DNA of 42,502 bases from an uncultured bacterium (GTDB lineage: Bacteria; CAIJMQ01; JAADFP01; CAZSGC01). The position numbers were made by a program, and so were the translations under genes. This document shows positions 377 to 30,042 of this stretch, in pieces. Location of the stretch: positions 30,649-73,150 of the forward strand of contig CAZSGC010000001.1 of the NCBI GenBank assembly GCA_964606225.1, written 5' to 3'. Each line of letters starts with the position of its first letter. Position 1 is the stretch's first letter. Below the pieces are notes generated by a model. It did not search any database, was not told where the DNA came from, and was given only the letters and a program-made list of their open reading frames with translations.

Positions 377-377
377 C

Positions 378-3604: not shown

Positions 3605-6600
3605 TTACCTTCCCTCCTTCCAGAACCAGAATCTACGCGGAGGAGAAGGAACTTCTTCCCAGGGAGAAGGTTTACGATATACCCAACTCTGTATGTCTGT
3701 ATCGGACTTGTCAGGTTCTGCAGGATAATAAACTTCCACCAAAAAGGAGTAACTATTGTCGGGTAAAAGTTCTTCGGTAGTATTGTCACCGTAGGTAAGG
3801 GTACCTTCCCATATATTAGGATTGGTGCTAACCTGCCATTTGAAGTCATAGTTGAGAGCAACTTTGCCTTCCGGTTTATATAAATAACATTTATACTCGT
3901 GGGCTCCACTTCCTCCCCAACTTCTCCAAGTAAAGGTTACCACATCTTCCTGAGAAATTCCAGCCGGACCTTCTATAATCTCTACATGAGGTAGGTCACT
4001 CTCTATCCACCAGTAATAGGTATTACCTCCTATACCTCGTGTTTCTTGAGTCTCATAATTCCCTGCCTTATCCATATATCTTACTTTGAAGGCATAGGCT
4101 CTCCCCGGGGTGAGATTGGTGTAAGAAGTAGAGAGGTAACTATCACCCTCTACAAAATCACTCCAACCCAAATCCTTTCCTTCCAGCATCCATCTCACCA
4201 GCCAGGTGTCAGAAAGACTCTCTCCGGTTATTTGATTGGCAGGGTCGTAAGAACTCCAGGTAAAGGAGGCGGAAGTAGAGGAAGAACTGGCAGTGGTTTC
4301 AACTATGGAAGTTACCATAGGGGTAGTATCCACCTGAATCTTTATTCCCGTATCAGAGGTAATCACCTCATTCCCTGCTCGGTCATATATACGAAATCTT
4401 ATACGGTTAAAATCCCGGGATTCCATCTGGAAGAGAGCGGTATCTACCTGCACTACCTCCTCTACATTAACCGCTCCCTCAAAACCAGAAGGTAAGGTTA
4501 TATAATCCTTCTGCCACTCTCCCCAGTAAAATTTTTTGTTGAGGGTATCGTAAAGGTAAAGAGAGTACATGGGAGGGCTATCAGAGAGGGTGGTCTCATT
4601 AAGACCAGAGCAGTCATTAACACTGGCTCCCAGATTTACATCAGGATTTTTGTCTATTACCTTGATTCTCACCCCAGGGGTTCGAGAAACTGTCCAGGTA
4701 TCCTGAGAGTTCTCCACCCAGGTAAAAGCCCGGTTAAGTAAATCAGTAGGGTAATCGTAAACAGGATAGACTTCGGAGTAATAAACTTCCGGAGTTTCTT
4801 CCACCACTACGGGAGGGGCAGTATCTTTCAGGAGAAAGAGGAGAGAAGAATCTCCCCCATCATCCTCAGGGATACTATAAGAAGGAGGAGGAATCTCCTC
4901 ATTACCTGCATTGTCAGTGGCTCTTGCTTCAATGGCGTAGCCACCTTCGGTGGGAGGATAGAAAACATACTGCCACTGGGAGTAATCTCCTCTACCACTG
5001 GTATCCTCCACCAGTTCCCAGGTTCCCCACTCGTATTGACTCTCATTTTCCGGCCAGGCTCCTCCCTGATTACGTCTCCCAGTTCTTATCCTCACCACAT
5101 CGATTCCGGTAGGATAAAGAACGCTATCATAAGCCACACCACTCACTTTTACCGGCAAAGTATTCTGAGCATTGAAGATGTAAACGGTTCTGCCATCTAA
5201 CTGGATAGGGAAAAGACCGGTATCCGGAGTAGAAGAATCCCGAGGCGGGACGTTAATTTCGGTGAAGGGAGGTTCCACATCTACATAAATACTCTGGAAA
5301 TTTATCACCACCTCTTTCAGTACCGGACTTACACTACTCTGGGAAGTCTTAAGGAAAGGACGATACTGGAGATACCGGGAGATAGGATGGACTCTCACTT
5401 CATCAAAGTAAGCCTGGCTACTGGTGTAAAGAGAAAGGTTAGAAGGGGTAAAGGTGGGATTGTTGATACGCCCATACCCCACATCCTGAATATTCACCGT
5501 TATAGCCTCATCTCCCTGAAAACTCCATCTTTTCCAGTTCACAAGATACCTTTCTCCAGAGGTGTAAGTACCCAGGAAGGAAGAATCCTCCACCACTCCA
5601 TCATTGATATACTGAAGATACACTTCTCCATTCTCAAAATAGACCAGATATCCGGTATCTCCAGAAACTTCCTCCAGAGGACCAAAGGTTTGATTGGAGA
5701 TAGCGGATACAGTTTTACCACTTATAGGAGTTACCCAGTGGTAAAGGGAAAAATACTCTTCTATCTCTTTCTGAGAGGTTACACCTGTAGGGGTGGAAGC
5801 GGTAATCTCCAGATGGAGATTTACCTCCTCAATCCCGGAGACCTCACCCCACCTACTCCAGAGACTCCCATCCAGGGTATCATCGTTAAAACTATCCCGC
5901 CACCTCACTATGTACTCCTCCCCTCCTTTCACTCCGTAAGCGTAGGGAGGAGACCACCTTCCATCTATATCTGTATCGGAGAGGGGAGTATCGGAGTCCC
6001 GGGTATATAAGATGATAAATCTCCTCAAAGCATGGGAAGTGATAAGAGGCTCGGAAAGAGCGCCCTGAGAAATCTTCACCAGGTCTATCTTCCCAGAAAA
6101 TCCTTCCGTGCTTCCGCCCAGGAAAAGGGAGGGATTACCCGGGTAAAGGATGTCTCCTTCCGCAAAGGTGTTGGTGTATTTGGGAATACCGTCCACATAA
6201 AGGATTAAATTATTCCCCCCGTAAGTAAAGGCAAGATGGTACCACTCAAAGAAAGAGAAAGCATCGGGATCAGTAGCCGTGTAGGAGCCTGTGGAAGTAT
6301 AAATCTTTACCTGGAAATGACCAGAACTGTCCGTACCCAGCCACCACCCTGAGTTCTGACCATCTCCCATAGAGAGAATACTTTGAGCCGTGGAAGAGAC
6401 TGTGGGATATACCCAGCATTCCACAGTGAGAGTTCTCAAAGCCAGAGAGGAGGAGTAGGGAACTTCCACGTAATCTCCAGAAGAAAAACTTAAAGACCAG
6501 TGAGTAGGATACTCTCCCTCATAGGTCCAGGTGGCTCCCCAAACATTCCCATGATTATCAAAACCTGAGGAATCCAGAGCAGTATCCGCATTCCCCCCCT

Positions 6601-6928
6601 CATCCAGATACCATAGCCCTCGGGTATAGATGTCCTTTTTAACCAAGAAATCCTCACCTTCCCAGGAAATTTTTTCCCAGATGACCGGAACCTGTGCATC
6701 TCTCCAGGAGGAGAAGAGAATTCCCGTATCCGGATAAGAGACTCCATTCCACTCTAAGTAAAGGTCTCCAGGAACGGTATCTCCATCTACGTTTTCTGCC
6801 CACCAGTAGTAACTGGTAGCCTGCCAGAGGAGTTGGGAATCCCCTCCTGACCAGTCAGTTTGTGTCCAGGCGAAGAGAAGTAGAGGAGAGAGAAAAAGAA
6901 GTGTGAGGAAAAATTTACATTTTTTCAT
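3605..6928 (-). CDS. Large secreted LamG (Laminin_G_3 / concanavalin-A-like) plus tandem Ig/Fn3-like repeat protein. It is a candidate pilus-associated adhesin or cargo.
   Basis: Sec-type signal MKKCKFFLTLLFLSPLLLFA|WTQ. The LamG signature spans about aa 105-290 (DSSGFDNHGNVWGA..LSFSSGDYVEVPYSSSLALRTLTVECWVYP..WYHLAFTYGGNNLILYVDGIP). At least three beta-sandwich modules end in D-x-AGN (ATDNAGNEE, IYDRAGNEV, YMDKAGNYE). There is no pilin-like N-terminus. Confidence 0.8.
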   Translation of the reverse strand: MKKCKFFLTLLFLSPLLLFAWTQTDWSGGDSQLLWQATSYYWWAENVDGDTVPGDLYLEWNGVSYPDTGILFSSWRDAQVPVIWEKISWEGEDFLVKKDIYTRGLWYLDEGGNADTALDSSGFDNHGNVWGATWTYEGEYPTHWSLSFSSGDYVEVPYSSSLALRTLTVECWVYPTVSSTAQSILSMGDGQNSGWWLGTDSSGHFQVKIYTSTGSYTATDPDAFSFFEWYHLAFTYGGNNLILYVDGIPKYTNTFAEGDILYPGNPSLFLGGSTEGFSGKIDLVKISQGALSEPLITSHALRRFIILYTRDSDTPLSDTDIDGRWSPPYAYGVKGGEEYIVRWRDSFNDDTLDGSLWSRWGEVSGIEEVNLHLEITASTPTGVTSQKEIEEYFSLYHWVTPISGKTVSAISNQTFGPLEEVSGDTGYLVYFENGEVYLQYINDGVVEDSSFLGTYTSGERYLVNWKRWSFQGDEAITVNIQDVGYGRINNPTFTPSNLSLYTSSQAYFDEVRVHPISRYLQYRPFLKTSQSSVSPVLKEVVINFQSIYVDVEPPFTEINVPPRDSSTPDTGLFPIQLDGRTVYIFNAQNTLPVKVSGVAYDSVLYPTGIDVVRIRTGRRNQGGAWPENESQYEWGTWELVEDTSGRGDYSQWQYVFYPPTEGGYAIEARATDNAGNEEIPPPSYSIPEDDGGDSSLLFLLKDTAPPVVVEETPEVYYSEVYPVYDYPTDLLNRAFTWVENSQDTWTVSRTPGVRIKVIDKNPDVNLGASVNDCSGLNETTLSDSPPMYSLYLYDTLNKKFYWGEWQKDYITLPSGFEGAVNVEEVVQVDTALFQMESRDFNRIRFRIYDRAGNEVITSDTGIKIQVDTTPMVTSIVETTASSSSTSASFTWSSYDPANQITGESLSDTWLVRWMLEGKDLGWSDFVEGDSYLSTSYTNLTPGRAYAFKVRYMDKAGNYETQETRGIGGNTYYWWIESDLPHVEIIEGPAGISQEDVVTFTWRSWGGSGAHEYKCYLYKPEGKVALNYDFKWQVSTNPNIWEGTLTYGDNTTEELLPDNSYSFLVEVYYPAEPDKSDTDIQSWVYRKPSPWEEVPSPPRRFWFWKEGR

Positions 6929-6986: not shown

Positions 6987-9884
6987 TCACCTCTCGTAAA
7001 CGCAATCAATCCGGTATTCTCCCAGGATTTCGTCTGCTCCCTCATCATATTTTCCGTCTCCATCCGTATCCCTCACACTTCTACCTGTAACTTTTATCCG
7101 GAAGAGATTAGAGCGGACAGTAACCAGGTTGGAAAGGTGAGAGAAAGTCTGGCAGGCTTTGCTTAAATCCCCCCAGTAATTCTCCAAAACATAGAGCAAT
7201 TTCCCAGTACTATCCAGGGGACCTTGAGTATCTATATAATTCCTTATATACTGAGCCAGAGAACTGTCTACGTTCGGAAGAGCCTCCAGGACAACTTTAT
7301 CCGCAGTATTAATATTTATCCTCCCGTAGACACGGGGTAGAGGGGCTAATACCACTCCATCAAAGTAAGCGTCGGAAGCACCAGGGGGCTTTCTTACCGT
7401 TATCTGAAGATATACCTCTCCTTCCTCTCTACTTTCGTTGGGGTCGGCAATCCAGACCTCTCCGTAATACCCCATTCCATCGGGTCCTGGATTTACCAGT
7501 ATTTCCGGATAATCCTTTACCCAGGTATCCACCTTCACCAGAAGGGGAACATCTTCCTTACCCAGGATATAAAGGGAGTAAAGGGCGGTATCTGGAGAGA
7601 TTCTCTCTGAAAAACCCCATCCCCATGTCCCTGCACTTTCAGAGTTAGTGTAGTAATAGTCGGTAAGGAAAGGAGGAGAGGCAGGATAGGAATCCCCCCA
7701 TCCATTATCGTAATAACTGGAATATTCTGCCTCCAGTCTCTGGCAGGTTACGGTGAATCTATCCGCTATGCGAACCAGCAGGAGGTCTTTCTGAGAGGGG
7801 TCTGTTTCATCTGTAAGCACTTCCTCTATCCTCTTCCAGGAGTCATTTTTCCCTATGGCTCCTTTTACTTTATATAACTCCCCCACGGAGGCAAAGGGGC
7901 GGTTTTTTACGATTATTTTGTCTAAATCCACAGAATTTACCCCTGTATTTTGTTGACCCGGTGTCCCTTGAGGCTGAATCCCCCTATCCTCATCCTCTAC
8001 TCCGCTCAATAGTCTATTTCTCCAGTTCTCTACGGGGTCAGGGAGAGTTGGGTCTTTCTTCTCTAAGGCAGTGAAGAGGATAACCGAATCCCCTGCATCA
8101 CTCTCCTTAGGGAAGAACCAGGCTCTACATACCACTCTCCCTTCCTCATCCCGAACAATTACCGTATCTCCTTTATCCGTAGCATCCTGTGGAGGAGAGA
8201 CAGAGTCCCATCTATTAGAGGAAAAATCCAAGGCATGGTCTCCCACTCCTCCCCATTCCAAGGATACTAAAGGAGTATCTTCCTTCGGAGTATCCCCCCA
8301 CAGTCCCGTATTATCTCCCCAGCCTGATTCAAAGGAAGTCTGGTCATTATCCCTTCTTTCCGGAGAAGAGTTATCCTTGCGGTCCACCAGAAGGAGATAA
8401 CTTCTTGCAGGAAAGGTAGTTCCCAGAGGGATAATTCCCCGGGATACCGGACCACTTTCTCCCACCACCTCCACCGTCCAGAGACTTAAGTCAATATCCT
8501 CCTCACTTAAGTTTAAAAGTTCTATATACTGGGACTGCTGGGAGAGGATGATAAAGAAAAAGGAGGCAGGGATTCCATCGTTTACATCCTGTAAGGTGAG
8601 GGAAAGTTGTCCAGTAGTGATGTCTACATTTCCCTTATCCTCGAGGTCTATAGCATAAGGAGGGGTGGAAGAGGGGGTAAAGGAACCCAGGAAATTGCCG
8701 TTTACGGTTACATTCACCTCTCCCAGACCACTGGGGTGACAGTATATCCTCAGATAGTACTTGCCATTATTAATATTTCCCCAGGTCCAGTTAGCAGAAT
8801 CTCCCGTATTATTGGAGTAAATCTCTCCCATCGGAGGACCCCACCCATTATCGTAAATACTGGCTCTCACCCCTCTAAACTTCCCCCAGGTCCTGGGCAT
8901 TACCTCATTTATCTGAACATCCTCCACACCGTATATATCTTCTCCGGTATCCGGATTTATAAAGTGGGTGGCGTAGTGGTTTCTATCCCGGTAATCGGCA
9001 ATGTTAGCAGAGAGTTGAAGAGCAGTATCGGGATGAATACCTTCCTGAACCAGGACGGTATCCACCACTACGGGTTCTGCCAGATTTAAGTTAATACGGT
9101 TTAAACCAGAATCATCCATATCCAGGTCAAAGGAGTAGAGGGTTATATAGGGTTGTATCTGGCTAAAAATATCCTCTCCCACAGCCTTCTTCACCTCATC
9201 CAGGCTCAAGAAAGGAGTATCGGAGTTCACCTCACCTGCAGACGGAGGATAGGGACTCCATACTACCAGTTCATCCGGCTCGTCAAAACCCTCACCCGGT
9301 TCATCAATAGAGTCATCTCCATCATTATCTATCCCATCATTCTCCAGGAGGACATTATCTCTATCATCATCGTAATTCTCTTCTCCAGGTCCAGGTCCCT
9401 CCCGGTAATAGATAAGATTATTTGCCACGGTATCGGGAGAAGGAATTCCCAGAGCAGTTAAAAAATCGACTAAACTTATCTCAAAAGTAGTCCATCCTTC
9501 ATTCTGCCTGTCTCCAGCAATGTTTAAGTTAATCTTCCCTGCTTCGTCTTCTATTTTAATCTTATAGGCTCCCACCAGATTTCCATTATCATCTTTTACA
9601 TCTTCCCAGTCTTCTGCCTGATAGATTTCATCTAACCACTCATCTCCAGGACCATCGTATTTGTTATCTTCTAAGTCCTTCTCCAAAGCGCTAATAGCTA
9701 AGTTTACCCCTGCCTGAGCAATGGAGGAAGCCTTTACCTCTCCTAAGTAATTGAAGGAAGCCTCCTCCTCCATCCTCATCTGATAGGAGAAGGAAGCGGC
9801 TAAAGCAGAGAGGATAGCCATTATGGATATGGCTATTATCAGAGCCATGCCCCTTTTATCCTCTAAGCAAAGAATTCTTTTCAT
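6987..9884 (-). CDS. Giant GspK/PilX-like minor pseudopilin (965 aa) with large insertions
   Basis: The N-terminus KRGMALIIAISIMAILSALAASF is a GspK-type hydrophobic segment without Glu5. The motif YKIKIEDEAGKINLN is present, along with two iNxN-type helix-hairpin units (LNRINLNLAEP..ANIADYRD and GRININTADKVVLEALPNVDSSLAQYIRNY). The C-terminal TVRSNLFRIKVTG is also GspK-like. The start ATG overlaps the upstream stop (ATGA). Confidence 0.75.
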   Translation of the reverse strand: MKRILCLEDKRGMALIIAISIMAILSALAASFSYQMRMEEEASFNYLGEVKASSIAQAGVNLAISALEKDLEDNKYDGPGDEWLDEIYQAEDWEDVKDDNGNLVGAYKIKIEDEAGKINLNIAGDRQNEGWTTFEISLVDFLTALGIPSPDTVANNLIYYREGPGPGEENYDDDRDNVLLENDGIDNDGDDSIDEPGEGFDEPDELVVWSPYPPSAGEVNSDTPFLSLDEVKKAVGEDIFSQIQPYITLYSFDLDMDDSGLNRINLNLAEPVVVDTVLVQEGIHPDTALQLSANIADYRDRNHYATHFINPDTGEDIYGVEDVQINEVMPRTWGKFRGVRASIYDNGWGPPMGEIYSNNTGDSANWTWGNINNGKYYLRIYCHPSGLGEVNVTVNGNFLGSFTPSSTPPYAIDLEDKGNVDITTGQLSLTLQDVNDGIPASFFFIILSQQSQYIELLNLSEEDIDLSLWTVEVVGESGPVSRGIIPLGTTFPARSYLLLVDRKDNSSPERRDNDQTSFESGWGDNTGLWGDTPKEDTPLVSLEWGGVGDHALDFSSNRWDSVSPPQDATDKGDTVIVRDEEGRVVCRAWFFPKESDAGDSVILFTALEKKDPTLPDPVENWRNRLLSGVEDEDRGIQPQGTPGQQNTGVNSVDLDKIIVKNRPFASVGELYKVKGAIGKNDSWKRIEEVLTDETDPSQKDLLLVRIADRFTVTCQRLEAEYSSYYDNGWGDSYPASPPFLTDYYYTNSESAGTWGWGFSERISPDTALYSLYILGKEDVPLLVKVDTWVKDYPEILVNPGPDGMGYYGEVWIADPNESREEGEVYLQITVRKPPGASDAYFDGVVLAPLPRVYGRININTADKVVLEALPNVDSSLAQYIRNYIDTQGPLDSTGKLLYVLENYWGDLSKACQTFSHLSNLVTVRSNLFRIKVTGRSVRDTDGDGKYDEGADEILGEYRIDCVYER

Positions 9885-10609
9885 CTTAAATAAACCACCA
9901 TTTCCTGTTTTATCTCCCCTTTACCTTTCCCCTCTCCGTATTCTGCAGTGATAGAAATTTCCACTTTTGTGGGAAGCCGGTATCTTTTGGAGTCAGTATC
10001 TGCTTCTCCCCAACTTTCATATTCACTCTCCCCTTCATAAAACCTAACCCTAAAATCCGTTATATGAAGAGCAAGTTCATAATTTCCCCATACCGGAATA
10101 GTGGAGTGAAAAGGTCCACTGGGTTCAAATCCTCTATCAGGGGTGGATGGAGAAGGATAATTGGGAAGAAGGGGAGAGGGAGAATCTCTCTCTGCCCGGT
10201 AAATAAGGTTTCTCTTCCTTCCCCCGGACCAGTAAATGCTCTTATAATGGCAGTAGATTATCTGCTTTCTACCCTTCTCTTCATCGGGAACAACAAACTC
10301 CATATAGGAGTACTCTTTTCCCTGATAGGTAGTTTTCCCTCCTACAAAGAATACATCTCCTCTTCTAAAAACTTGAGGGTCTAAGGCATTCTTTAAATCT
10401 TTCCTCAGATAATCCAGAGCAGCCCGTGTGTTCACATATACCTGAGCAAGATTTATCCCCTTCCGGGAGGAGAGAAGGCTTCCCTGAAATATGAGGTAGA
10501 AACTACCTCCAATAATACTCAGGATAGCCACGGTTACCATCATCTCCACCAGAGTAAATCCCTTCCCAGAAGGAATTTTTCTAAGGCAGAACATCTCCAT
10601 AGTCCTCAT
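9881..10609 (-). CDS. Minor pilin with a prepilin-type N-terminal cleavage/methylation motif (GspJ/PilW-like by position)
   Basis: The N-terminus reads KIPSGKG|FTLVEMMVTVAILSIIGG. At 242 aa it precedes the GspK-like gene with a 4-nt overlap. The true start may be one of the internal Met codons at 10600 or 10594. Confidence 0.6.
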   Translation of the reverse strand: MRTMEMFCLRKIPSGKGFTLVEMMVTVAILSIIGGSFYLIFQGSLLSSRKGINLAQVYVNTRAALDYLRKDLKNALDPQVFRRGDVFFVGGKTTYQGKEYSYMEFVVPDEEKGRKQIIYCHYKSIYWSGGRKRNLIYRAERDSPSPLLPNYPSPSTPDRGFEPSGPFHSTIPVWGNYELALHITDFRVRFYEGESEYESWGEADTDSKRYRLPTKVEISITAEYGEGKGKGEIKQEMVVYLR

Positions 10610-12505: not shown

Positions 12506-12529
12506 CCCTCCTCTTTCCTTTATAAACAC

Positions 12530-12610: not shown

Positions 12611-13672
12611 TCACACTTTGGCGGGTAAAATCACCTCAAAAGTGGTCCCTTTACCCACCTCACTGCTAACTCTTATATCTCCTTTAAACCTCTTTATCAG
12701 AGCATAACTGATAGCCAGTCCCAAGCCAAATCCTTTTTCTTTAGTGGTAAAGAAAGGGTCAAAGATAAATTTAAGGTTTTCTTGAGGTATCCCAGGACCG
12801 GTATCCTGAAAGTAGAGAGAAACTCTCCGCTCGTCCTTTCTTCCCCAGATACGGATTTCCCCTTCTTCCATAGCCTCTAAGGCATTGTTAATTATATTGA
12901 GGAACACCTCCCTTAACCTCTCCTTATTTCCAGAGACGGGAGGTAAATCCGAAGATAAGTTATTTTCCACTCTCACTTTCTCTAACTTGCCCTCTTCCTC
13001 AAGACCTTTTAGAATCTCTCCCACCAGAGTAACCGCATCCACCCATTCTACTGGAATTTCCTGGGAAGTCTTGGAGTATTCCAGAAGGGAGGTGGCAATT
13101 TCGTTAATTCGGGCTACCTCTCTCTCAATCTGCTCCAGTTGTTCTATAACCTTTTCTCTCCCTATCTGGGAAGAAGTCCCTTCTAAAGAATTGCGAATAA
13201 GATAGGAGGAAGTCCTTATGATGGAGAGAGGATTCCTTATCTCATGCACCACTCCTGCTGCCATCTTAGCCAGAGAAGCAAGTTTTTCCTGCTCTATGAG
13301 TTCCATCTGGAGAGAGAGAAGTTCAGACCTAATTTTTCTTAATTCCTCATTGCGAATCCTCAGTTCTTCCTCTAACCTGCGGTTTAACTGAATAATCTCT
13401 CTCTGAGCAGTGAGTAAGGAGGAGGCTACCTCTTCACCTTTAAAGGAAAGGGGAGAGGTACTTCTCAAAAACAAAGTGCGGGATACTCTGGTAAAAGTGA
13501 AGAGCAAAAGGGAGAGAAAGAAACCCAGAAAGAAAAATTCCATACTCCAGAAGAGATTCCTGTAAGGTGGCGGAAGTCTGATAAGAAGAGGGAAAGGAGA
13601 AAGGAGTAGAAGCAAAAGAAGGAGAAATATCAGAAAGTAAAGAAGTTCTCTCCTCTCACTTTTTTCCGACAT
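12611..13672 (-). CDS. Sensor histidine kinase (PilS-like by context): two N-terminal TM segments, coiled coil, HisKA, HATPase_c
   Basis: The H-box is AAGVVHEIRNPLS. The N-box and G-boxes are LNIINNALEAM, FQDTGPGIP and GFGLGLAISY. The gene overlaps the upstream regulator gene by 17 nt. Confidence 0.85.
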   Translation of the reverse strand: MSEKSERRELLYFLIFLLLLLLLLSPFPLLIRLPPPYRNLFWSMEFFFLGFFLSLLLFTFTRVSRTLFLRSTSPLSFKGEEVASSLLTAQREIIQLNRRLEEELRIRNEELRKIRSELLSLQMELIEQEKLASLAKMAAGVVHEIRNPLSIIRTSSYLIRNSLEGTSSQIGREKVIEQLEQIEREVARINEIATSLLEYSKTSQEIPVEWVDAVTLVGEILKGLEEEGKLEKVRVENNLSSDLPPVSGNKERLREVFLNIINNALEAMEEGEIRIWGRKDERRVSLYFQDTGPGIPQENLKFIFDPFFTTKEKGFGLGLAISYALIKRFKGDIRVSSEVGKGTTFEVILPAKV

Positions 13673-15038
13673 CCCTGACTTCCTCAGGATGAATATGATA
13701 AATTCTCATCTTCTCATAAAAGTGTCGGCGAGAAATTCCGGCTTTCTGGCTGGCTTTACTAACATTACCTCTGGTTTCCTTAAGTAGCCTTAATATATAC
13801 TCTCTCTCCGTTCTCTTTCTTACCTCCTCCAAAGTCCCACGGAGATTTTCCTCCCCAGATACCCGATAACCTCTTATCCTCTCCGGAAGGTCCTCCACAT
13901 CAATCACTCTCTCCTCCGCAAGTACAATACATCCCCTCACCACATTCTCCAATTCCCGAACATTTCCAGGCCAGTCGTAACTCTCCAAGTATTTCATAGC
14001 CTGACGGGAAAAGGTTTTTCTCATAGAAGCATCTTTACTCTGGTATTTGTTAAGAAAATGCTCTACCAGAAGGAGAATATCTTCTTTCCTCTCCCTTAAA
14101 GGGGGCAAAGTAATGGAAACAGCGTTTAGACGATAGAAGAGGTCTTCCCGGAATCTCCCCTCTTTCATTTCTTTCTCTAAATCTTTGTTGGTGGCAGAGA
14201 CAATCCTCACATTAACCCGGATGGGCTCGGTACCACCTACTTTGTAAAATTCTCCCTCCTGGAGGAACCTTAAGATTTTCATCTGGACAACAGGAGAGAG
14301 GTCTCCTACTTCATCCAGAAATACCGTCCCTCCATCCGCCACCTCTAATAGACCCTTTTTCCTCTCCATAGCCCCGGTGAAGGCTCCCTTTTCATGTCCG
14401 AATAATTCACTCTCCAGAAGTGTCTCCGGTAGGGCACCACAGTTTACGGTTAGAAACCGTTTTTCTCTTCTGGGGCTTCTTCTGTGTATAGCCCGGGCTA
14501 CCAGTTCTTTTCCTGTACCACTTTCCCCTATCAGCAATACGGAGACATCACTTTTGGCTACTTTCTGTATAAACTCATAAACTTTCTTCATTTTTTCACT
14601 CAACCCTACCAGTTCTTCAAAGCCTCTCTCCTTCTCCAGTTCTTCCTTAAGAAGAGAGACATCTTCCTTAAGTCTTTCATGCTCCAAGGCTCTTTCTATG
14701 GAAATTATCACCTCTTCCGGATTAAAGGGTTTGAGAATATAATCGTAGGCTCCCAAGCGAAGAGCCTGAATGGCGGTCTCCATACTACCGTAAGCAGTTA
14801 TTATGATAAAGGGAATTCTCCATCCTTCCTGACGAAGTTTCTCCAGGAATTTAGTGCCTTCCATATCCGGGAGTTTGAGGTCACTCAGCACCAGATGGGG
14901 AGAAACCTTACGGATTTCTTTCCAAGCAGAGTTAGCCTTATCAAAGGGATAAACCTTGTATCCTTTAGATTCCAGAAGGATGGATAGATTTCTGCTCAGT
15001 ACTTTATCATCTTCCAGGAGGAGGATTCTATACTTCAT
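13656..15038 (-). CDS. Sigma-54-dependent response regulator (NtrC family, PilR-like by context): REC, AAA+ and Fis-type HTH domains
   Basis: REC motifs are LLLEDD and SDLKLPDMEG. Walker A is GESGTGKELVARAIH, the sigma-54 contact loop is GAFTGA, and the C-terminal HTH is GNVSKASQKAGISRRHFYEKM. ATG at 15038 is preferred; the tracked start at 15041 is the adjacent in-frame TTG. Confidence 0.9.
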   Translation of the reverse strand: MKYRILLLEDDKVLSRNLSILLESKGYKVYPFDKANSAWKEIRKVSPHLVLSDLKLPDMEGTKFLEKLRQEGWRIPFIIITAYGSMETAIQALRLGAYDYILKPFNPEEVIISIERALEHERLKEDVSLLKEELEKERGFEELVGLSEKMKKVYEFIQKVAKSDVSVLLIGESGTGKELVARAIHRRSPRREKRFLTVNCGALPETLLESELFGHEKGAFTGAMERKKGLLEVADGGTVFLDEVGDLSPVVQMKILRFLQEGEFYKVGGTEPIRVNVRIVSATNKDLEKEMKEGRFREDLFYRLNAVSITLPPLRERKEDILLLVEHFLNKYQSKDASMRKTFSRQAMKYLESYDWPGNVRELENVVRGCIVLAEERVIDVEDLPERIRGYRVSGEENLRGTLEEVRKRTEREYILRLLKETRGNVSKASQKAGISRRHFYEKMRIYHIHPEEVRDVGKK

Positions 15039-15046
15039 CAATCTTA

Positions 15047-15075
15047 ATTATAAAGGGAAAGGGTAGAGACTGCAA
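15047..15075 (-). promoter_or_regulatory. Sigma-70-type promoter for the pilR/pilS-like operon, predicted to be leaderless
   Basis: The minus strand reads TTGCAG(15075..15070), a 17-nt spacer, TATAAT(15052..15047), 8 nt, then ATG(15038). No Shine-Dalgarno is present. Confidence 0.55.
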
Positions 15076-15095
15076 AAAGTAGGGTTTAGAGAACC

Positions 15096-16355
15096 TTAAT
15101 GAATCATGGTGGCGATTCTTATCAAAGGAAGGAAAAGCGAAATTACAATAAAGCCCACTATCACACCCATAAAAACAATCAGCAGAGGCTCCAGAATAGA
15201 GGCTAATCCCTCCACAGCGGTATCCACTTCCTCATCATAAGTATCTGCTACTTTAATAAGCATAGTGTCCAAGGCTCCCGTCTCTTCTCCTACATCCACC
15301 ATGTTCACCACCAGGGGAGGAAATACCTTGGCTTCCTCTAAGGGTTTGGCTATACTTTCTCCCTCTCGAATAGAATCATGAACTCTTACCATAGCCCGGG
15401 AGATTACTTCATTACCCGATGTTTCCTTAACAATAGCCAGAGCCTGTAAGATAGGAACTCCACTATTAATCAATGTCCCCAGAGTCCGTGTAAATCTGGC
15501 AATAGCACTTTTGAGAAATAGAGGGCCAAAGATAAAGAGTTTAAGTTTTACAAAATCTATTAAGTATCTACCTTTCTGAGTACGGTAGATGAGTTTGAAA
15601 GCCACGAAGAGGAAAATTAAGGCAGCAATTCCATAATACCACCTGGTCTTAACCAAATCTGAGGCAGCGATAAGGATTCGGGTAGGAAGAGGAAGGTTTG
15701 CCCCCACTCCTCCAAATTCCTCAAACATTTTCTTGAATATAGGAATAATATAGGTAATTATGAAGGTCACAATACCGGAGGCTACTACTGCTACCACCAC
15801 CGGATATATCATGGCTCCTTTAATCTTCCTTCTTAAGGAGGCTTCCTTCTCCATAAACTCAGCAATTCGGGAAAGCACTACTTCCAGAACACCTCCCACC
15901 TCTCCAGCCTTTACCATATTTATATAAAGTTTAGAGAAGGTCTCAGGATGCTTGGCTAAAGCCTCAGAAAAAGTACTACCTCCTTCTATATCTTCTATTA
16001 AATCGGTAATGATATTCTTTAAAGGTCCTGGTTTAGCCTGCTCCCGGAGTACATTCAAACTCCTCACCAAAGGCAATCCAGCATCAATAAGAGTAGCCAG
16101 TTGCCTGGTAAATTCAGTTAACTCTTTAGTCTTTACCCGGGTTGTAAGACCGGGTATCTTTATCTCCATCTGGAGGCTTAAACCCTTAGCCTCCTTTTTC
16201 TTCCCTGCTACAGGAACTCTCTGTTCTTTGATTCGGGTGGGGAAGTAACCCATCTCTCTTATCTGAGAGGCAGCCAGATTTACATTATCTGCTTCTATAG
16301 TGCCCTTAACCTCTTTACCCTGATTGTTCAGTGCCACGTAAGTATAAACGGGCAT
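15096..16355 (-). CDS. pilC: Type IV pilus / T2SS inner-membrane platform protein PilC/GspF
   Basis: The 419-aa protein has duplicated GspF-type repeats (LTEFTRQLATLIDAGLPLVRSL and IARFTRTLGTLINSGVPILQAL) and three TM segments. GGTGAGGAG lies upstream of the ATG. Confidence 0.9.
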   Translation of the reverse strand: MPVYTYVALNNQGKEVKGTIEADNVNLAASQIREMGYFPTRIKEQRVPVAGKKKEAKGLSLQMEIKIPGLTTRVKTKELTEFTRQLATLIDAGLPLVRSLNVLREQAKPGPLKNIITDLIEDIEGGSTFSEALAKHPETFSKLYINMVKAGEVGGVLEVVLSRIAEFMEKEASLRRKIKGAMIYPVVVAVVASGIVTFIITYIIPIFKKMFEEFGGVGANLPLPTRILIAASDLVKTRWYYGIAALIFLFVAFKLIYRTQKGRYLIDFVKLKLFIFGPLFLKSAIARFTRTLGTLINSGVPILQALAIVKETSGNEVISRAMVRVHDSIREGESIAKPLEEAKVFPPLVVNMVDVGEETGALDTMLIKVADTYDEEVDTAVEGLASILEPLLIVFMGVIVGFIVISLFLPLIRIATMIH

Positions 16356-16377
16356 CTCTCCTCACCCCCTCTATCTT

Positions 16378-18096
16378 TTATACATAACCAGTGGTTTCTC
16401 TAACCACTTCTTCAATAGTAGTAATCCCTCTAAAAATCTTATCCAATCCATCCTTCCTCAGAGTTCTCATCCCATACTTGAGAGCAATCTCTCGAATTTC
16501 TCCCGCAGAGGCTCTCTCCACCACCGCCCTTCTTAACTCCTCATTCATTACCAGAATTTCAAATATTCCCGTTCTCCCCGCATATCCAATATTATTGCAG
16601 GCAGGACATCCTCTACCTCTATAAAACTTATGCTTCTTAGCCTCTTCTCTACTCATCTCCAGAAGTTCCAGCTCTTCCGGAGAGGGCTCATACTCCTCCT
16701 TACAGTAATTGCATATCACCCTAACCAATCGCTGGCTTATCACTGCTTCCAGAGTAGAACTTATCAGAAAAGGCTCCACTTCCATATCCACCAGTCGGGT
16801 TACTGCAGAAGGTGAATCATTGGTGTGAAGAGTGGAGAAGACTAAGTGTCCGGTGAGGGAAGCCTGGATAGCCATCTCCGCAGTCTCCAAGTCTCTTATT
16901 TCTCCCACCAGAATAATATCCGGGTCTTGGCGAAGGATATGCCTTAAGGTAGTGGCAAAGGTCAACCCTATCTGGGGTTTTACCTGAACCTGAATAATTC
17001 CTTCAATATCATACTCTACCGGATCTTCCACAGTGATAATCTTTACCTCAGGAGAGTTTATCTCTCTTAAAGCAGCGTAGAGAGTGGTAGTCTTCCCACA
17101 TCCTGTAGGACCAGTAACCAGAATTATCCCATTGGGTTTATGGATAAGTTTCCTCACTATCTCCAGGTCTTCCTCACATAACCCCAGTTTCTCCAGAGGA
17201 AGCATTAAGACGCTTTTATCCAGCACCCTCATCACTACACTCTCTCCAAAAACGGTAGGCACGGTGGAAACTCGCAAGTCTATCTCTCTTCCTCCCATGT
17301 GGAGGGAAATTCTTCCATCCTGAGGAAGTCTCCTCTCGGCAATGTCCATATCTGCCATTACCTTAATTCTGGTGGTCACAGCCAAAGCAAAGTGTTTGGG
17401 AGGAGGAACCATCTCATAGAGCACCCCATCCACTCTATATCTTATCCGGAACTGGTCTTCAAAAGGCTCAAAGTGAATATCACTGGCTTTATCCTTTATA
17501 GCCTGAATAAGAACCAGGTTAAGAAGTTTAACCACCGGGACTTCATGAGCCAGTTGTTCCAGGGTCTCCACATCTTCCACTTCCTCCGGAGTTTCTTCCA
17601 GGGGAGCCGCCTCTGCTTCTAAAGTTTTAAGAAGGTCTTCCACTGTCTCCATCTCTGCCCCATAAAGACGGTCAATAGCCTCATTAACTGCCTGTTCATT
17701 ACTTATCAGCCCCTTCACCTCACAATCCAGAAGGAACCTCAAATCATCCAGAGCCTGAACATTCAGGGGGTCTCCCATGGCCACCACCAGAGTATCTCCT
17801 TCCATCCTTACAGGGACAATCTTGTAGGCTTTAGCCAAGGGACCGGGTACTTTTTCCAGAAGTTGAGGACTTACTTCCACCTCGGAGAGGTCTATCTCCT
17901 CCATTCCTGTCTGGGCACCTAAGACAGAGAGTATATCCTCATCAGTGACAAATCCCATCTCCACCAGGACTCGACCCAGCAACTTTCCACTCTTTTTCTG
18001 TTCCTCCAAGGCTTGCTCAAGTTGTTTTTCCGTTATAAGTCCTCTCTCCAGAAGCAAGGTGCCCAGTTTCTTTCTCCCTACTGCTTTCTCCTTCAC
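16378..18096 (-). CDS. pilB: PilB/GspE-family extension ATPase, copy B, with an intact MshEN-type N-terminal motif pair
   Basis: Walker A is GPTGCGKTTT, the Asp box is PQDGRI, and the His box is GHLVFSTLHTND. The tetracysteine motif is CNYC..CPAC. The GTG start at 18096 overlaps the pilT stop (GTGA) and is preceded by GGAGGGGAG. Confidence 0.9.
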   Translation of the reverse strand: MKEKAVGRKKLGTLLLERGLITEKQLEQALEEQKKSGKLLGRVLVEMGFVTDEDILSVLGAQTGMEEIDLSEVEVSPQLLEKVPGPLAKAYKIVPVRMEGDTLVVAMGDPLNVQALDDLRFLLDCEVKGLISNEQAVNEAIDRLYGAEMETVEDLLKTLEAEAAPLEETPEEVEDVETLEQLAHEVPVVKLLNLVLIQAIKDKASDIHFEPFEDQFRIRYRVDGVLYEMVPPPKHFALAVTTRIKVMADMDIAERRLPQDGRISLHMGGREIDLRVSTVPTVFGESVVMRVLDKSVLMLPLEKLGLCEEDLEIVRKLIHKPNGIILVTGPTGCGKTTTLYAALREINSPEVKIITVEDPVEYDIEGIIQVQVKPQIGLTFATTLRHILRQDPDIILVGEIRDLETAEMAIQASLTGHLVFSTLHTNDSPSAVTRLVDMEVEPFLISSTLEAVISQRLVRVICNYCKEEYEPSPEELELLEMSREEAKKHKFYRGRGCPACNNIGYAGRTGIFEILVMNEELRRAVVERASAGEIREIALKYGMRTLRKDGLDKIFRGITTIEEVVRETTGYV

Positions 18097-19157
18097 ACTC
18101 TCCCCTCCACTTTTGCCTGAATCTCTTCCGGATTCTGAGCCCTTATCATCATATCCTCATAAGTTATAACTCCCTTGGAGTAAAGTTCATAGAGATGCTG
18201 GTCCAAGGTTCTCATTCCATACCGGGCTCCTGTCTGAATAAAGGAGGTTATACGATAAGTTTTCTTCTCCCTTATCAAACTCTGGATAGCAGGGATGGCT
18301 ACCATTATCTCAAAGGCAGCTACCCTTCCTTTCCCAGAGGCACGGGGAAGTAATTGCTGAGAAATTACCGCAATCAAATAGGAAGATACCTGAACCCTTA
18401 TCTGTTCCTGTTTCTCAGCAGGGAAAGCATCAATGATTCTATCCACTGTCTGAGCAGCACCTGTAGTATGAAGAGTGGAGAAAACTAAATGTCCGGTCTC
18501 AGCAGCCAGAAGAGCAGCCTCAATGGTATTTATATCTCTCATCTCCCCTACCATCATGACATCAGGGTCCTGTCTTAATCCCCTTATAATAGCCTCGGCA
18601 AAGGAAGGCACATCTACTCCCAGTTCTCGCTGAGAGACAATCCCTCTTTTATGCTCATGGTAGTATTCTATGGGGTCTTCTATGGTTAAGATATGACAAT
18701 CCCGCTGGGTATTAATATAATCAATCATAGTGGCTAAGGTAGTGGTCTTTCCACTTCCCGTAGGACCGGTAACCAGTATAAGTCCACGAGGACGATAGAG
18801 AAGTTCCTTGATTTTTTCCGGTAAACCAATTTCTTCAAAGGTAAGAAGTTTATAAGGAATAAGCCGCATGGCTATACTGATTCTTCCCTTCTCCCGGTAC
18901 ACGCTTACCCGGAAACGAGCCAGGTCTCCAAAAGCAAAACCGAACTCCGTCCCTCCCACCTCTCTCACCTTCTGCTGGTGAGGAGGAGAGGTTATACTCT
19001 TCATCATTCTCTCCGTATCTTCAGGAGTAAGAGGCTCGTAATCCAGCACATCCAGTCTTCCATCTATCCTTAATACCGGAGGTTTGCCCACCACTAAATG
19101 AAGGTCGGAAGCATTTCTCTCCACCACTAAACGCAGTAGTTCTCCTATCTCCAGCAT
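18093..19157 (-). CDS. pilT: PilT twitching-motility (retraction) ATPase
   Basis: The 354-aa protein has no N-terminal GSPII_E_N domain. Motifs include ASDLHL, GPTGSGKTTT, RGLRQDPDVMMVGEMRD and GHLVFSTLHT. AAGGAG lies 9 nt upstream of the start. Confidence 0.9.
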   Translation of the reverse strand: MLEIGELLRLVVERNASDLHLVVGKPPVLRIDGRLDVLDYEPLTPEDTERMMKSITSPPHQQKVREVGGTEFGFAFGDLARFRVSVYREKGRISIAMRLIPYKLLTFEEIGLPEKIKELLYRPRGLILVTGPTGSGKTTTLATMIDYINTQRDCHILTIEDPIEYYHEHKRGIVSQRELGVDVPSFAEAIIRGLRQDPDVMMVGEMRDINTIEAALLAAETGHLVFSTLHTTGAAQTVDRIIDAFPAEKQEQIRVQVSSYLIAVISQQLLPRASGKGRVAAFEIMVAIPAIQSLIREKKTYRITSFIQTGARYGMRTLDQHLYELYSKGVITYEDMMIRAQNPEEIQAKVEGRV

Positions 19158-19158
19158 T

Positions 19159-20877
19159 TTAGACTACTCCTTCTACTACATCCTGCTGGGTTACTCTTAT
19201 TACTTCTTCCACCGTGGTAATCCCCCGATAGGCTTTTACCCACCCATCTTCCCTTAAAAGCTTCATCCCCTCTTGCCGAGCCATTTCTCTTATCTCATAA
19301 CTGGTGGCTCTCTGTAAAATCATCCGGCGAATGTTTTCGCTCACTACCAGAAGTTCAAATATTCCCGTCCTTCCCCTGTATCCAGTCATGTTACACTCTG
19401 AACATCCTCTTCCCTTCACGAAGTTGGCTCCCTCAAGAGTACCCATTACCGCCTCTACTTCTCTCAGGACCTCATCAGGTGGAGTAACTGGCTCCTGACA
19501 CTTGGGACATACTTTTCTCACCAATCTTTGAGCCAGAACTGCCTGCACAGCAGAAGCAACTAAGAAGGGTTTAATTCCCATATCTATCAATCGGGTCACT
19601 GCACCTGCAGCATCATTGGTATGGAGGGTAGAGAAAACCAAATGACCGGTTAAAGCAGCACGGATGGCTATCTCCGCGGTCTCTGTATCTCTAATCTCTC
19701 CCACCATGATAACATCGGGTGCCTGCCTTAAGATGGAACGAAGAGCAGAAGAAAAGGTAAGTCCAATCTGAGGTTTGACCTGCAATTGATTGATACCAGA
19801 AAGTTGATACTCTACCGGGTCTTCAATGGTAATTATCTTCCTATCCGGTAAGTTTAACTGGTTTAATACTGCATAGAGAGTAGTGGTCTTTCCACTTCCT
19901 GTAGGACCGGTTACCAGGATAATTCCATTAGGTAGATTTATTACTCTCTGCCATCTATCCAAATCTTCTTCCAGAAAGCCCAGTTCAGTGAGGCCATAAA
20001 GAAGACTGGATTTATCCAGAATTCTCATCACCACACTCTCTCCATGAATCCCAGGGAGAGAAGATACTCGCAGGTCTAACTGTCTACCCAATACATTTAC
20101 CATTATCCTTCCATCTTGGGGAAGTCTCTTCTCAGCAATATCCATACCTGCCAGAATCTTAATACGGGAAATCACCGCTCCTTCCAGTCTCTTAGGAGGA
20201 GCAGGGACTTCATGAAGAACACCATCTATACGGTATCTTATGCGAAGGCGGTTAGCTAAAGGCTCAACATGTATATCACTGGCCCGGGCTCTGAAAGCCT
20301 CCAAAATTAATAAACTCACCAATCGAATTATGGGTGCCTCTTCTGCAAGTTCTACTTCCTCTACCTCTGTAGCAGTTCCCTCGGCAAAACTTATGTCCTG
20401 CTCGGTCAACTCCTCCAAAACTGTATCTATGGTTTCTTCTTCCACCCCATAGAATCTGTTTAAATACTGATTTACCTCTCTCTCTGAAGCAAGTACTGCC
20501 TTTATCTTACAACCAATCATCCTCTCCAGATTATCTAATCCCAGAAAATCCAGGGGGTCAGAGAGAGCCACGGTTAAAACTCCATCTTTTAACTCTAAAG
20601 GAATAATTTTGTGTTTTCTGGCTATGGGAGCAGGAACCTTGGCAATAACGTCAGAGTCTGGATGATAATCAGAAATTTTAACCGGAACTAAGCCAAAGTG
20701 GACACTTAAGGCTTTGGTGAGATCTTCCCGGCTAATATACCCCATCTTGACAAGAACATCACTTAACCTCTCTCCGGTTTCTTCCTGCTCTCTTAAAGCG
20801 AATTCTAACTGTTCTTCAGTAACCAGACCGATATTGACTAAAATCTCCTTCCACAGTTCCTGCTCTCGGTTTCCCAT
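19159..20877 (-). CDS. pilB: PilB/GspE-family extension ATPase, copy A
   Basis: Motifs include GPTGSGKTTT, PQDGRI, GHLVFSTLHTND and CPKC..CSEC. The protein is 572 aa, the same length as copy B. The start lies 11 nt after the pyrG stop and has GAAGGGGA upstream. Confidence 0.9.
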   Translation of the reverse strand: MGNREQELWKEILVNIGLVTEEQLEFALREQEETGERLSDVLVKMGYISREDLTKALSVHFGLVPVKISDYHPDSDVIAKVPAPIARKHKIIPLELKDGVLTVALSDPLDFLGLDNLERMIGCKIKAVLASEREVNQYLNRFYGVEEETIDTVLEELTEQDISFAEGTATEVEEVELAEEAPIIRLVSLLILEAFRARASDIHVEPLANRLRIRYRIDGVLHEVPAPPKRLEGAVISRIKILAGMDIAEKRLPQDGRIMVNVLGRQLDLRVSSLPGIHGESVVMRILDKSSLLYGLTELGFLEEDLDRWQRVINLPNGIILVTGPTGSGKTTTLYAVLNQLNLPDRKIITIEDPVEYQLSGINQLQVKPQIGLTFSSALRSILRQAPDVIMVGEIRDTETAEIAIRAALTGHLVFSTLHTNDAAGAVTRLIDMGIKPFLVASAVQAVLAQRLVRKVCPKCQEPVTPPDEVLREVEAVMGTLEGANFVKGRGCSECNMTGYRGRTGIFELLVVSENIRRMILQRATSYEIREMARQEGMKLLREDGWVKAYRGITTVEEVIRVTQQDVVEGVV

Positions 20878-28357: not shown

Positions 28358-28359
28358 TT

Positions 28360-30033: not shown

Positions 30034-30042
30034 TATGTTGTA

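Follow-up and report, generated by a model that had tools for sequence, protein, structure and literature searches.

A GspK-type minor pseudopilin with nested lamin-tail and jelly-roll modules in a type IV filament operon of an uncultured bacterium

Why should a minor pseudopilin of the GspK type be 965 amino acids (aa) long, and what might its additional residues do? The question is raised by a gene on the minus strand, at positions 6987..9884, of a 42,502-nucleotide (nt) stretch of contig CAZSGC010000001.1 from an uncultured bacterium; this whole stretch is called the window here. An earlier note on this DNA had described the product as a three-fold oversized GspK/PilX-like tip pseudopilin with acidic, Ca2+-loop-like runs and a split lamin-tail domain (LTD). 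The observation holds, and its interpretation is supported in part: it is largely right, with corrections to the repeat count, to where the long acidic loop lies, to the nature of the beta-rich modules and to the rarity of the size. All the motifs quoted there were found, within a few nt of the positions given for them (Table 1). By hidden Markov model (HMM) matches, predicted fold and gene order, the 965-aa protein is a GspK-type minor pseudopilin. Its enlarged cap domain appears to consist of three repeats that accommodate two separate, nested insertions.

Pilin part and cap domain

The gene is a single uninterrupted frame, translationally coupled to the J-like gene upstream: its ATG and the stop of that gene overlap by 4 nt. 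The N-terminus, KRG/MALIIAISIMAIL (KRG/MALIIAISIMAILSALAAS), has a leader that ends in Gly and carries Ile, not Glu, at position +5. E. coli K-12 GspK likewise lacks Glu5 (RG/VALLI), and the family HMM aligns the first 73 residues to E. coli GspK residues 2-84 (E 4e-13). The NCBIfam model T2SS_GspK (NF037980) matches residues 11-303 with E 5e-20 and 72.2 bits, against a cut-off of 130. Near the other end of the protein, Pfam HHH_3 matches residues 855-899 above its cut-off of 27 (E 8e-8, 32.7 bits), the start of Pfam T2SSK (PF03934) matches 856-878 (15.3 bits, cut-off 24.2), and residues 914-965 match the C-terminus of TIGR02600 (profile positions 1200-1253, E 2e-9, 36 bits, cut-off 332). Similar matches recur among 24 homologues: HHH_3 is found in 20, T2SSK in 11 and T2SSK_1st (PF21687) in nine (the latter two at E<=1e-3), and PilX_N in three. 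XcpX and ComEA in the PDB were reached by the family profile only, and a de-inserted core (residues 1-306 joined to 849-965) gave no significant match when searched against the PDB by sequence. Scans with Pfam and NCBIfam gave no match of the 965-aa protein to PilY1 or to a propeller family. On such profile scores the protein is best described as a homologue, not an equivalog, of GspK.

The predicted structure agrees with this assignment. An AlphaFold2 (AF2) model of the full protein, built from a 24-sequence alignment, has a pLDDT of 75.5 and a pTM of 0.75. In it, strands at 94-113 and 927-964 flank the helical units, that is, the pilin sheet is interrupted by an alpha-domain. A Foldseek search with the model found XcpK (9a1f_T, from the XcpGHIJK filament model) with prob 1.0, a TM-score by target length (TMt) of 0.45 and 285 aligned columns. 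The two terminal strands (927-938 and 952-964) are modelled with pLDDT >87. Because both are modelled confidently, the last strand of the pilin sheet would be supplied in cis, as has been described for GspK in type II secretion systems (T2SS) and for CpaL; PilK of type IVa pili instead receives a strand from PilY1/PilC (Ellison et al., PMC13533445). N119 and N121 of the first iNxN motif, at the end of the first pair of pilin strands, are nearly invariant in the family alignment. The pseudopilin genes follow one another in the order G-G-H-I-J-K in one operon, and Pfam N_methyl is among the matches of those upstream of K. The order is the same in L001, a locus with a syntenic operon that carries a K-like orthologue, and is kept in part in many other loci. 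Together, the GspK match, the XcpK-like fold, this gene order, the missing Glu5 and the cis terminal hairpin bear out the K-type assignment of the earlier note.

What is the cap domain made of? Where two iNxN helix-hairpin units had been counted, three are present, with motifs KINLN (117-121), RINLN (263-267) and RININ (855-859). Each motif leads into a helix pair ending in "...(Y/D)YR" (the a half), then a loop, then a ComEA-like "PF.s..EL..V.G" helix-hairpin (the b half). In hhalign comparisons the a halves match one another with a probability of ~96% (E ~1e-9) with large family alignments, and at 88, 88 and 58% with clean 8-sequence alignments; homology among the a halves is thus supported at the level of profiles. 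For the b halves, unit 1 against unit 2 and unit 1 against unit 3 gave 90 and 93% with the large alignments and 34 and 49% with the 8-sequence alignments, whereas units 2 and 3 showed no similarity to each other (3 and 2%, respectively). Control comparisons of a with b halves stayed below 1% with large and below 2% with 8-sequence alignments. Homology of the unit 1 b half with those of units 2 and 3 is therefore suggestive. Positions 230-258 of the family (A2) profile match ComEA (8dfk_A, E 2e-5, and 2duy_A). By our own assignment of positions this stretch would fall on residues 222-262, which the family HMM aligns with the "ELRQIKGI" region of E. coli GspK.

On this reading, repeat 1 spans 112-262, and the acidic loop (164-221) parts its a half from its b half. 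Repeat 2 would comprise 259-305 and ~650-700, and the LTD, with the first jelly roll inside it, would occupy the same a-b loop. The second jelly roll (701-850) would lie between repeats 2 and 3, and repeat 3 would be 851-926. The segment 621-700, which includes the second half of unit 2, is kept in 79 of 170 relatives. What had been taken for a single extra block of ~600 aa thus resolves into two separate nested insertions. The acidic run, formerly counted as part of that block, is instead the inter-hairpin loop of the first repeat, equivalent to the LTD site in the second.

In E. coli K-12 GspK, too, the "SIADYID" helix is followed at a comparable point by a short acidic stretch, DVDDSPRFHGAEDSFY. 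The acidic loop could not, however, be matched one to one with the Ca2+ sites of canonical GspK, because the family HMM aligns the E. coli helix (SIADYIDVDD) to the helix at 294-303 of the second repeat (NIADYRDRNH), not to the first. For the same reason we go no further than to call its loop position equivalent inside a repeated unit.

Inserted modules, acidic loops and their family

The case for a split LTD comes from a splice test. On the native protein, Pfam LTD (PF00932, gathering cut-off 34.3 bits) matches residues 451-585 with E 5.6e-5 and 23.9 bits, beginning only at profile position 22. Residues 451-620 alone score 26.0 bits (profile 23-103). When residues 333-450 are removed and 314-332 are joined to 451-620, the score rises to 38.2 bits and the match extends over profile positions 6-103, whereas joining the unrelated neighbouring segment 296-313 to 451-620 gives 28.0 bits (profile 20-103). 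In-silico removal of 333-450 therefore adds 12 bits and brings the domain above its cut-off. In Foldseek the full model matches two lamin tails, that of lamin A/C (3gef_A, prob 1.0, TMt 0.63) and that of lamin B1 (2kpw, TMt 0.56), Pfam LTD is found in 19 of 24 homologues, and N326 and E327 of "INEV" are invariant in the aligned relatives. These results uphold both the LTD and its interruption by another beta module, which parts strand 1 (VQINEVM) from the remainder. The inserts are also kept in orthologues that are collinear with the protein from end to end at 43-48% identity, one of which lies in the fully syntenic operon of L001. We found no literature that pairs GspK or pilins with a lamin-tail domain.

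The interrupting module is predicted to be a beta-jelly roll. Modelled alone from 34 module sequences, it reaches an AF2 pLDDT of 92.1, and its Foldseek matches are carbohydrate-binding modules (CBMs) of the CBM6/35/36 type: MiXBM (7ehg, TM-score by query length, TMq, 0.73), 1ux7, 1w0n, 2vzp, 2w3j and 8j3y, all with prob 1.0 and TMq 0.57-0.73. The full model also matches the GH2 N-terminal domain, which the jelly-roll fold explains. The "further beta-rich sequence" of the earlier note is indeed beta-rich, but it is better described as a second CBM6/35/36-like jelly roll, homologous to the interrupting module: the two match at 98.3% probability in hhalign (E 2.6e-14, position-defined family alignments) and at E 3e-5 as single sequences in BLASTP. 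The second module occurs in 80 of 170 relatives, and the number of jelly rolls per protein ranges from one to three, with three copies in some. Searches of the 34 module sequences against Pfam, and of their profile against the PDB, gave best E-values of ~2e-3 to scattered, unrelated families and no sequence-level membership in a CBM family. Judged by sequence searches and predicted fold, the jelly rolls define a new, un-annotated domain family.

By the family alignment, the long acidic run is the most conserved element of the family. The acidic segment is present in 133 of 170 family proteins, and D172, D183, D186, N187, D194, E198, G199 and E205 are nearly invariant across ~130-175 aligned instances. 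Its consensus reads P-G-x4-D-D-[DN]-x-[DN]-N-x-[IL]-L-x-x-D-G-[ILV]-D-N-[DN]-[GA]-[DN]-G-x-[IV]-D-E-x-x-E-G-[IV]-[DN]-[ED]-P-x-E-[FY], and most of its D, N, G and E positions exceed 85-95% identity in those instances. It contains two tandem motifs, D172-D-[DN]-x-[DN]-N-x-[IL]-L-x-x-D183 and D186-N-[DN]-[GA]-[DN]-G-x-[IV]-D194-E. A strict nine-residue Ca-loop pattern, D-x-[DN]-x-[DN]-G-x-x-[DE], has an expected count of 0.03 in a shuffled protein; 113 of the 133 acidic segments contain it, as do 27 of 108 C-terminal hairpins of relatives. In the 965-aa protein itself the strict pattern is met only by the C-terminal loop DTDGDGKYD, which connects the last two pilin strands and is of a type shared by only the four closest of eight aligned full-length relatives. 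Near-invariant D, N and G positions with EF-loop spacing in >130 instances favour a defined site over generic charge. Ca2+ binding is established for GspK and XcpX, with two canonical sites and a third, and a Kd of 26 uM for XcpX (PMC6211770), which makes it a reasonable inference here. The acidic loop probably binds Ca2+ and rigidifies the cap.

Is the size of the protein exceptional? At 965 aa it is indeed three times as long as a GspK of ~330 aa, but it is not alone. Searched against 1.84 billion representatives, the family profile found 15,416 relatives at E<=1e-3 (a set that includes ordinary K subunits), 3,038 at E<=1e-10 and 318 clusters at E<=1e-30. Lengths of 900-2,500 aa are found for many of the 150 top profile matches, and an NCBIfam model of 1296 positions, TIGR02600, already exists; the size is therefore not exceptional. 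The insertion site is constant and its content variable, in proteins of 640-2500 aa. Full-length relatives in species-representative genomes come mostly from metagenome-assembled genomes and single-cell genomes of Omnitrophota; others are in bins labelled Planctomycetia, Ratteibacteria, TA06, Auribacterota and UBP3. In seven relatives of 2095-2492 aa (P0114, P0152 and P0162-P0166) the acidic segment is present several times, and large regions correspond to none of the defined segments. Such regions point to further inserted domains at or near the same site.

Table 1. Features of the 965-aa protein and of the surrounding operon, in order of transcription. All lie on the minus strand; positions are those of the window.
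Feature	Residues (aa)	Position (nt)	Basis
Motor and regulation: two GspE/PilB-like ATPases, PilT, GspF/PilC, sigma-54 response regulator, histidine kinase		12611..20877	NCBIfam; same order in L001
Two GspG-like pseudopilins		12128-12529, 11610-12113	Pfam T2SSG; NCBIfam gspG
H-like pseudopilin		11047-11607	NCBIfam gspH
I/PilV-like pseudopilin		10581-11057	NCBIfam pilV
J-like pseudopilin		9881-10609	Pfam T2SSJ; NCBIfam gspJ
Complete gene: K-type (GspK/PilX-like) minor pseudopilin of 965 aa, with nested inserts	1-965	6987..9884	Open reading frame, NCBIfam, AF2, Foldseek
Short leader (MKRILCLEDKRG/M); N-terminal hydrophobic helix that lacks Glu5; long alpha-1	1-73	9666..9884	AF2 helix 8-73
Pilin beta-strands 1 and 2, with DEAGKINLN (iNxN motif 1) at their end	94-121	9522..9605	AF2 strands 94-97, 103-113
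DEAGKINLN	113-121		Motif look-up
Helix pair of unit 1 (…ANNLIYYREG)	122-163	9396..9521	AF2 helices 138-144, 150-162; hhalign to units 2 and 3
Acidic loop, two tandem DxDxDG/EF-loop-like motifs (D172-D183, D186-E198) and E-G-x-D-E-P-x-E	164-221	9222..9395	Family alignment
Acidic run	169-205	9270-9380	Motif look-up
ComEA-like helix-hairpin-helix, second half of unit 1 (PFLSLDEVKKAVGEDIFSQIQPYITLYS)	222-262	9099..9221	Family profile, HMM
RINLN (iNxN motif 2) and unit 2 helix pair ending NIADYRDRNH; insertion point after it	263-305	8970..9098	AF2 helices 271-280, 285-299
Connector and first LTD beta-strand (GVEDVQINEVMP)	306-332	8889..8969	Splice test
VQINEVMP	323-330		Motif look-up
CBM6/35/36-like jelly-roll module 1, between LTD strands 1 and 2	333-450	8535..8888	AF2, Foldseek
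GKYYLRIY...	374-400		Motif look-up
Rest of LTD, including low-confidence ~65-aa loop (501-570)	451-620	8025..8534	Pfam, splice test, fold matches
QYIELLN...	452-473		Motif look-up
IPLG...LLLV	485-500	8385-8432	Motif look-up
Linker and second half of unit 2 (NRPFASVGELYKVKGAIG… helix-hairpin)	621-700	7785..8024	hhalign to unit 1 second half
CBM6/35/36-like jelly-roll module 2, paralogue of module 1	701-850	7335..7784	hhalign, BLASTP
RININ (iNxN motif 3) and ComEA-type HHH_3 unit 3	851-920	7125..7334	Pfam HHH_3; PDB profile matches ComEA, XcpX
Last two pilin beta-strands (SNLFRIKVTG…, …EYRIDCVYER) joined by DTDGDGKYDEGAD loop	921-965	6990..7124	AF2
SNLFRIKVTG	925-934		Motif look-up
DTDGDGKYDEGAD	939-951	7032-7070	Motif look-up
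1107-aa Sec-signal protein: LamG (concanavalin-like), Ig-like, Y_Y_Y/fn3		3605..6928	Pfam Laminin_G_3 (E 1.5e-24), Y_Y_Y, Big_3_2
PilM-PilN fusion		1801-3546	Pfam PilM_2, PilN; NCBIfam Amuc_1101
PilO/Amuc_1100-like protein		919-1797	NCBIfam Amuc_1100
186-aa protein		378-938	Gene table
Start of TPR protein, cut by window edge		~376 to 1	Frame translation

Proposed function and its rivals

What is the function of such an elaborate cap? We think it rather probable that the protein is a self-capping K-type tip subunit that doubles as a Ca2+-stabilised, glycan- or surface-binding adhesin. The machine would have GspG-like major subunits, a PilM-N/PilO platform, a secretin with tetratricopeptide repeats (TPRs), two extension ATPases with cyclic di-GMP (c-di-GMP) motifs, and PilT for retraction. 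The pilin part would act as GspK and PilK do: it would join the I-J dimer, prime assembly and end at the distal tip, with a cap domain built of three repeats, each an iNxN motif, a helix pair and a ComEA-like helix-hairpin-helix. In GspK/PilK the alpha-domain is the outermost part of a subunit that caps the filament (Korotkov and Hol 2008, as related in PMC8179133 and PMC13533445); here the tip would accordingly display the inserts. There the filament would present two lectin-like modules and one LTD, which would bind a polysaccharide or cell-surface glycan, and PilT-driven retraction would pull the cell to the bound surface.

Several points weigh against this proposal. The CBM likeness is a similarity of predicted fold only, at 11-20% identity and E-values of 1e-5 to 1e-3, and jelly rolls of the CBM6/35/36 type also serve non-lectin roles. 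The D-x-D-x-D-G spacing that had been seen in both acidic runs is strict in the C-terminal loop, but the long run has Asp (D191) in place of the consensus Gly at position 6 of its second motif, and the whole loop 164-221 is modelled with a pLDDT <50. The NCBIfam and Pfam K-family scores of the 965-aa protein lie under the trusted cut-offs. Finally, GspG-type major subunits could point to a short periplasmic endopilus and not to a surface pilus.

Could the tip bind DNA instead of glycans? In that case the three ComEA-like units, possibly helped by the LTD, would bind extracellular double-stranded DNA and PilT would retract it to the secretin for natural transformation. DNA uptake has likewise been proposed for ComZ of Thermus and for tip minor pilins of Vibrio. 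The HHH_3 match that is above cut-off in the 965-aa protein improves to 1e-20 in relatives and recurs in 20 of 24 homologues, profile matches in the PDB include ComEA (8dss, E 8e-6; 8dfk, E 2e-5), JGI has labelled one relative "DNA uptake protein ComE-like", and PilT is present. The account of ComZ in PMC8179133 also offers a precedent for a large DNA-binding domain inserted in a tip pilin. However, every GspK alpha-domain contains such helix-hairpin units (PMC8179133), which are not known to have a DNA role there. The G-x-G hairpins are degraded here (LPNVD and VGEDI, against LPGxD and VxGIG in the family), a D+E content of 17.5% over the 965 residues is unfavourable to DNA binding, no comEC or comEA was seen within the window, and the inserted modules resemble carbohydrate binders. 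We regard a DNA receptor as improbable.

We would give an equally low probability to a T2SS-like piston, in which a periplasmic filament brings the K cap to the secretin gate or to cargo and the LamG/Ig-like protein encoded downstream is a secreted substrate, not a tip partner. The GspG-like major subunits match the gspG model TIGR01710 above its cut-off (92.1 bits, cut-off 88.85), both extension ATPases are above the GspE cut-off, NCBI has already given the name GspK to one relative, the terminal strand of K is in cis, as in T2SS, and the LamG protein has a Sec signal peptide. The same ATPases, however, score nearly equally as PilB, just below that cut-off. GspC, GspL and GspM were not found in the operon by Pfam and NCBIfam scans, and a PilM-PilN fusion, a PilO-like protein and PilT are present instead. 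Moreover, ~540 extra lectin-like residues have no obvious periplasmic role, and the hugely variable insert content among relatives is a pattern typical of surface-exposed binding modules.

Less probable again, and in our view quite unlikely, is that the inserts are structural spacers or shields, which block subunit addition or protect the tip and have no specific ligand, with the acidic loop as a solubility feature. Such a role would fit the missing sequence-level CBM matches and the predicted disorder of the acidic loop. It is at odds with the near-invariant, EF-loop-spaced D, N and G positions in more than 130 instances, and with the duplication and shuffling of jelly rolls to one to three copies, which resembles the evolution of adhesins.

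That an assembly or frameshift error joined two genes has a negligible chance: the length is unusual beside the 327 aa of E. coli GspK, but an identical 965-aa product, save for 2 substitutions, is encoded in an independent ENA assembly, the collinear orthologues and ~25 clusters that cover the whole family profile in a single stretch exclude an artefact, and the K-type C-terminal strands that complete the pilin sheet in the AF2 model are located beyond the inserts.

The adhesin proposal has a broader form, which we put forward tentatively and hold to be possible rather than likely. In it, the a-b loop of the cap repeats would be a general plug-in site for binding cassettes, and the K cap would serve as the pilus adhesin in place of a PilY1-type partner. 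The site would hold an LTD and one to three jelly rolls, in proteins of up to ~2,500 aa, across several hundred Omnitrophota-like and other uncultivated lineages, and the invariant double Ca2+ loop, a candidate site as yet, would act alongside as a switch or brace. If this is true, the filament would be an organelle by which host-attached ultra-small bacteria recognise and reel in a partner cell.

Operon context and comparison with known systems

The gene belongs to a minus-strand operon of overlapping or tightly spaced genes that holds a complete type IV filament set. Transcription runs from the ATPases and PilT through GspF/PilC, a regulator and kinase, the pseudopilins, K and the LamG protein to PilM-N, PilO, the 186-aa protein and the TPR protein. 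The gene order of L001 is identical, and there the counterpart of the TPR gene at the window edge encodes a TPR-secretin. The two paralogous GspE/PilB-like ATPases (16378-18096 and 19159-20877) bracket the PilT-family ATPase, and both have an MshE-type c-di-GMP N-terminal motif (E 6e-20 and 8e-17). The best NCBIfam matches of the PilM-PilN fusion and the PilO-like protein are Amuc_1101 (E 5e-54) and Amuc_1100 (E 6e-7) of Akkermansia muciniphila. Both are below cut-off, and they link the operon to a pilus-like gene cluster of the Planctomycetes-Verrucomicrobia-Chlamydiae (PVC) type. LpxD and KdsB are among the flanking housekeeping genes, so the organism is a diderm, and the CTP synthase is 65-69% identical to its closest named relatives, in Omnitrophota, Firestonebacteria and Poribacteria. 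We class the machine among type IV filament systems of PVC/Omnitrophota style.

The sigma-54 response regulator and histidine kinase pair (12611-15041) lies between GspF and the pseudopilins and is kept in L001. A second sigma-54 regulator, paired with a HAMP kinase, is found ~12 kb further (26996-30558, minus strand). Between positions 10528 and 12503, the 5' ends of the pseudopilin genes hold four 35-nt direct repeats, with 71-74% identity to a reference copy, along with one pair of 105 nt. They are explained by the common coding sequence of the N-terminal methylation site and helix, and are not a mobile or regulatory repeat.

The large gene downstream of K may encode a second, non-pilin tip component. 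Its LamG-protein orthologues occupy the same position in L001, L003 and L005, and across loci K is usually followed by another large gene, then PilM-N and PilO. The LamG protein ends in PPRRFWFWKEGR and its L001 orthologue in PPRRFWTWEEGD, with PPRRFW[FT]W common to both. A conserved extreme C-terminus serves PilY1, PilC and MshQ for beta-strand addition to PilK. Since only two sequences share it, we take the PPRRFW[FT]W motif as a lead, not as evidence; a strand donation by the LamG protein is also opposed by the terminal strand that the K protein here has of its own. In a distant Omnitrophota relative (L002/L058, 13115-14989), the K-like gene stands outside a filament operon on that stretch, after housekeeping and restriction-modification genes and before a gene for a 624-aa Ig-like protein. 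K and the big downstream gene may thus at times move together without the machinery genes.

In L001, small genes for four-helix-bundle proteins of the 23S-rRNA-IVP/bAvd type (9639-10004 and 13325-13663) flank the K-like gene on both sides; the window has no such genes. Diversity-generating retroelements are accompanied by bAvd proteins. Such an element was rejected for L001, where neither the K nor the LamG gene takes part in a template/variable repeat pair and the repeats are those of the secretin TPRs only. Nothing comparable was found in the window.

How do simple pilus fibres gain specific binding? The question is not settled, and the known answers are tip adhesins such as PilY1/PilC and modular pilins. 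The present family suggests a third layout, in which binding-type domains are nested in the cap domain of the assembly-priming K subunit, next to a nearly invariant Ca-loop-like element. It is a large, undescribed family, concentrated in candidate phyla with almost no experimental biology, for which it offers an expressible candidate attachment determinant. It extends the idea of modular pilins and does not overturn current models of type IV filaments. In our searches, no literature was found on the Verru_Chthon cassette, and nothing relevant on pili of Omnitrophota.

The closest known relatives are GspK and XcpX (PDB 3CI0, 5VTM). They share with the 965-aa protein the Gly-ended leader, the helix without Glu5, a helical cap with iNxN motifs and helix-hairpins, an acidic loop after a "...DY.D" helix, the cis last strand and a gene position after I and J. 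In contrast to a GspK of ~330 aa, with two iNxN motifs in our reading of the E. coli K-12 sequence, the present protein has three repeats, an acidic loop enlarged to ~45 aa with two DxDxDG-type motifs, and an inserted LTD and two CBM-like modules. The machines differ too, since PilT and PilM-N/PilO take the place of the GspC/L/M of T2SS. As for the modules themselves, the LTD differs from other PF00932 domains in being interrupted after strand 1 and in an extra loop of ~65 aa, which makes it a bacterial example that tolerates a whole domain after its first strand. Module 1 has its fold in common with CBM36, CBM35, CBM6 and MiXBM, but not sequence-level membership.

ComZ of Thermus and CpaL/TadG of the Caulobacter Tad system likewise carry a big domain within the pilin fold, from which the chain returns to finish the sheet, and a tip location with ligand or surface sensing has been proposed there too. 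The middle part of CpaL (~470 aa) is partly dispensable for assembly (PMC13533445). The ComZ insert is a beta-solenoid, however, the middle region of CpaL is unrelated and the filament class differs, whereas the inserts described here lie within the repeats of a K-type alpha-domain and are nested, a jelly roll inside an LTD. A constant site with variable content fits the modular-pilin concept (PMC8179133). Protein A of the Verru_Chthon cassette (TIGR02600, ~1300 aa) is also very large and is encoded beside prepilin-type proteins in PVC-group bacteria, and the H- and I-like neighbour genes weakly match cassette proteins D and B, respectively (NCBIfam). The part in common with the 965-aa protein is the K-type C-terminal strands, its last 52 residues only; the middle domains are not shared.

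PilY1, PilC and MshQ are likewise large, modular and tip-associated, a likeness that would extend to location if the K protein ends the filament as proposed. Orans et al. reportedly found that a nine-residue DxNxDGxxD-type Ca2+ site of PilY1 controls pilus dynamics, and the DTDGDGKYD loop has the same spacing, a likeness in spacing only. The position of the downstream LamG gene is MshQ-like (PMC13533445). The architecture differs in kind: PilY1, PilC and MshQ are non-pilins that donate a C-terminal strand to PilK, whereas here, with no beta-propeller, the modules are carried within K itself, which has its own terminal strand.

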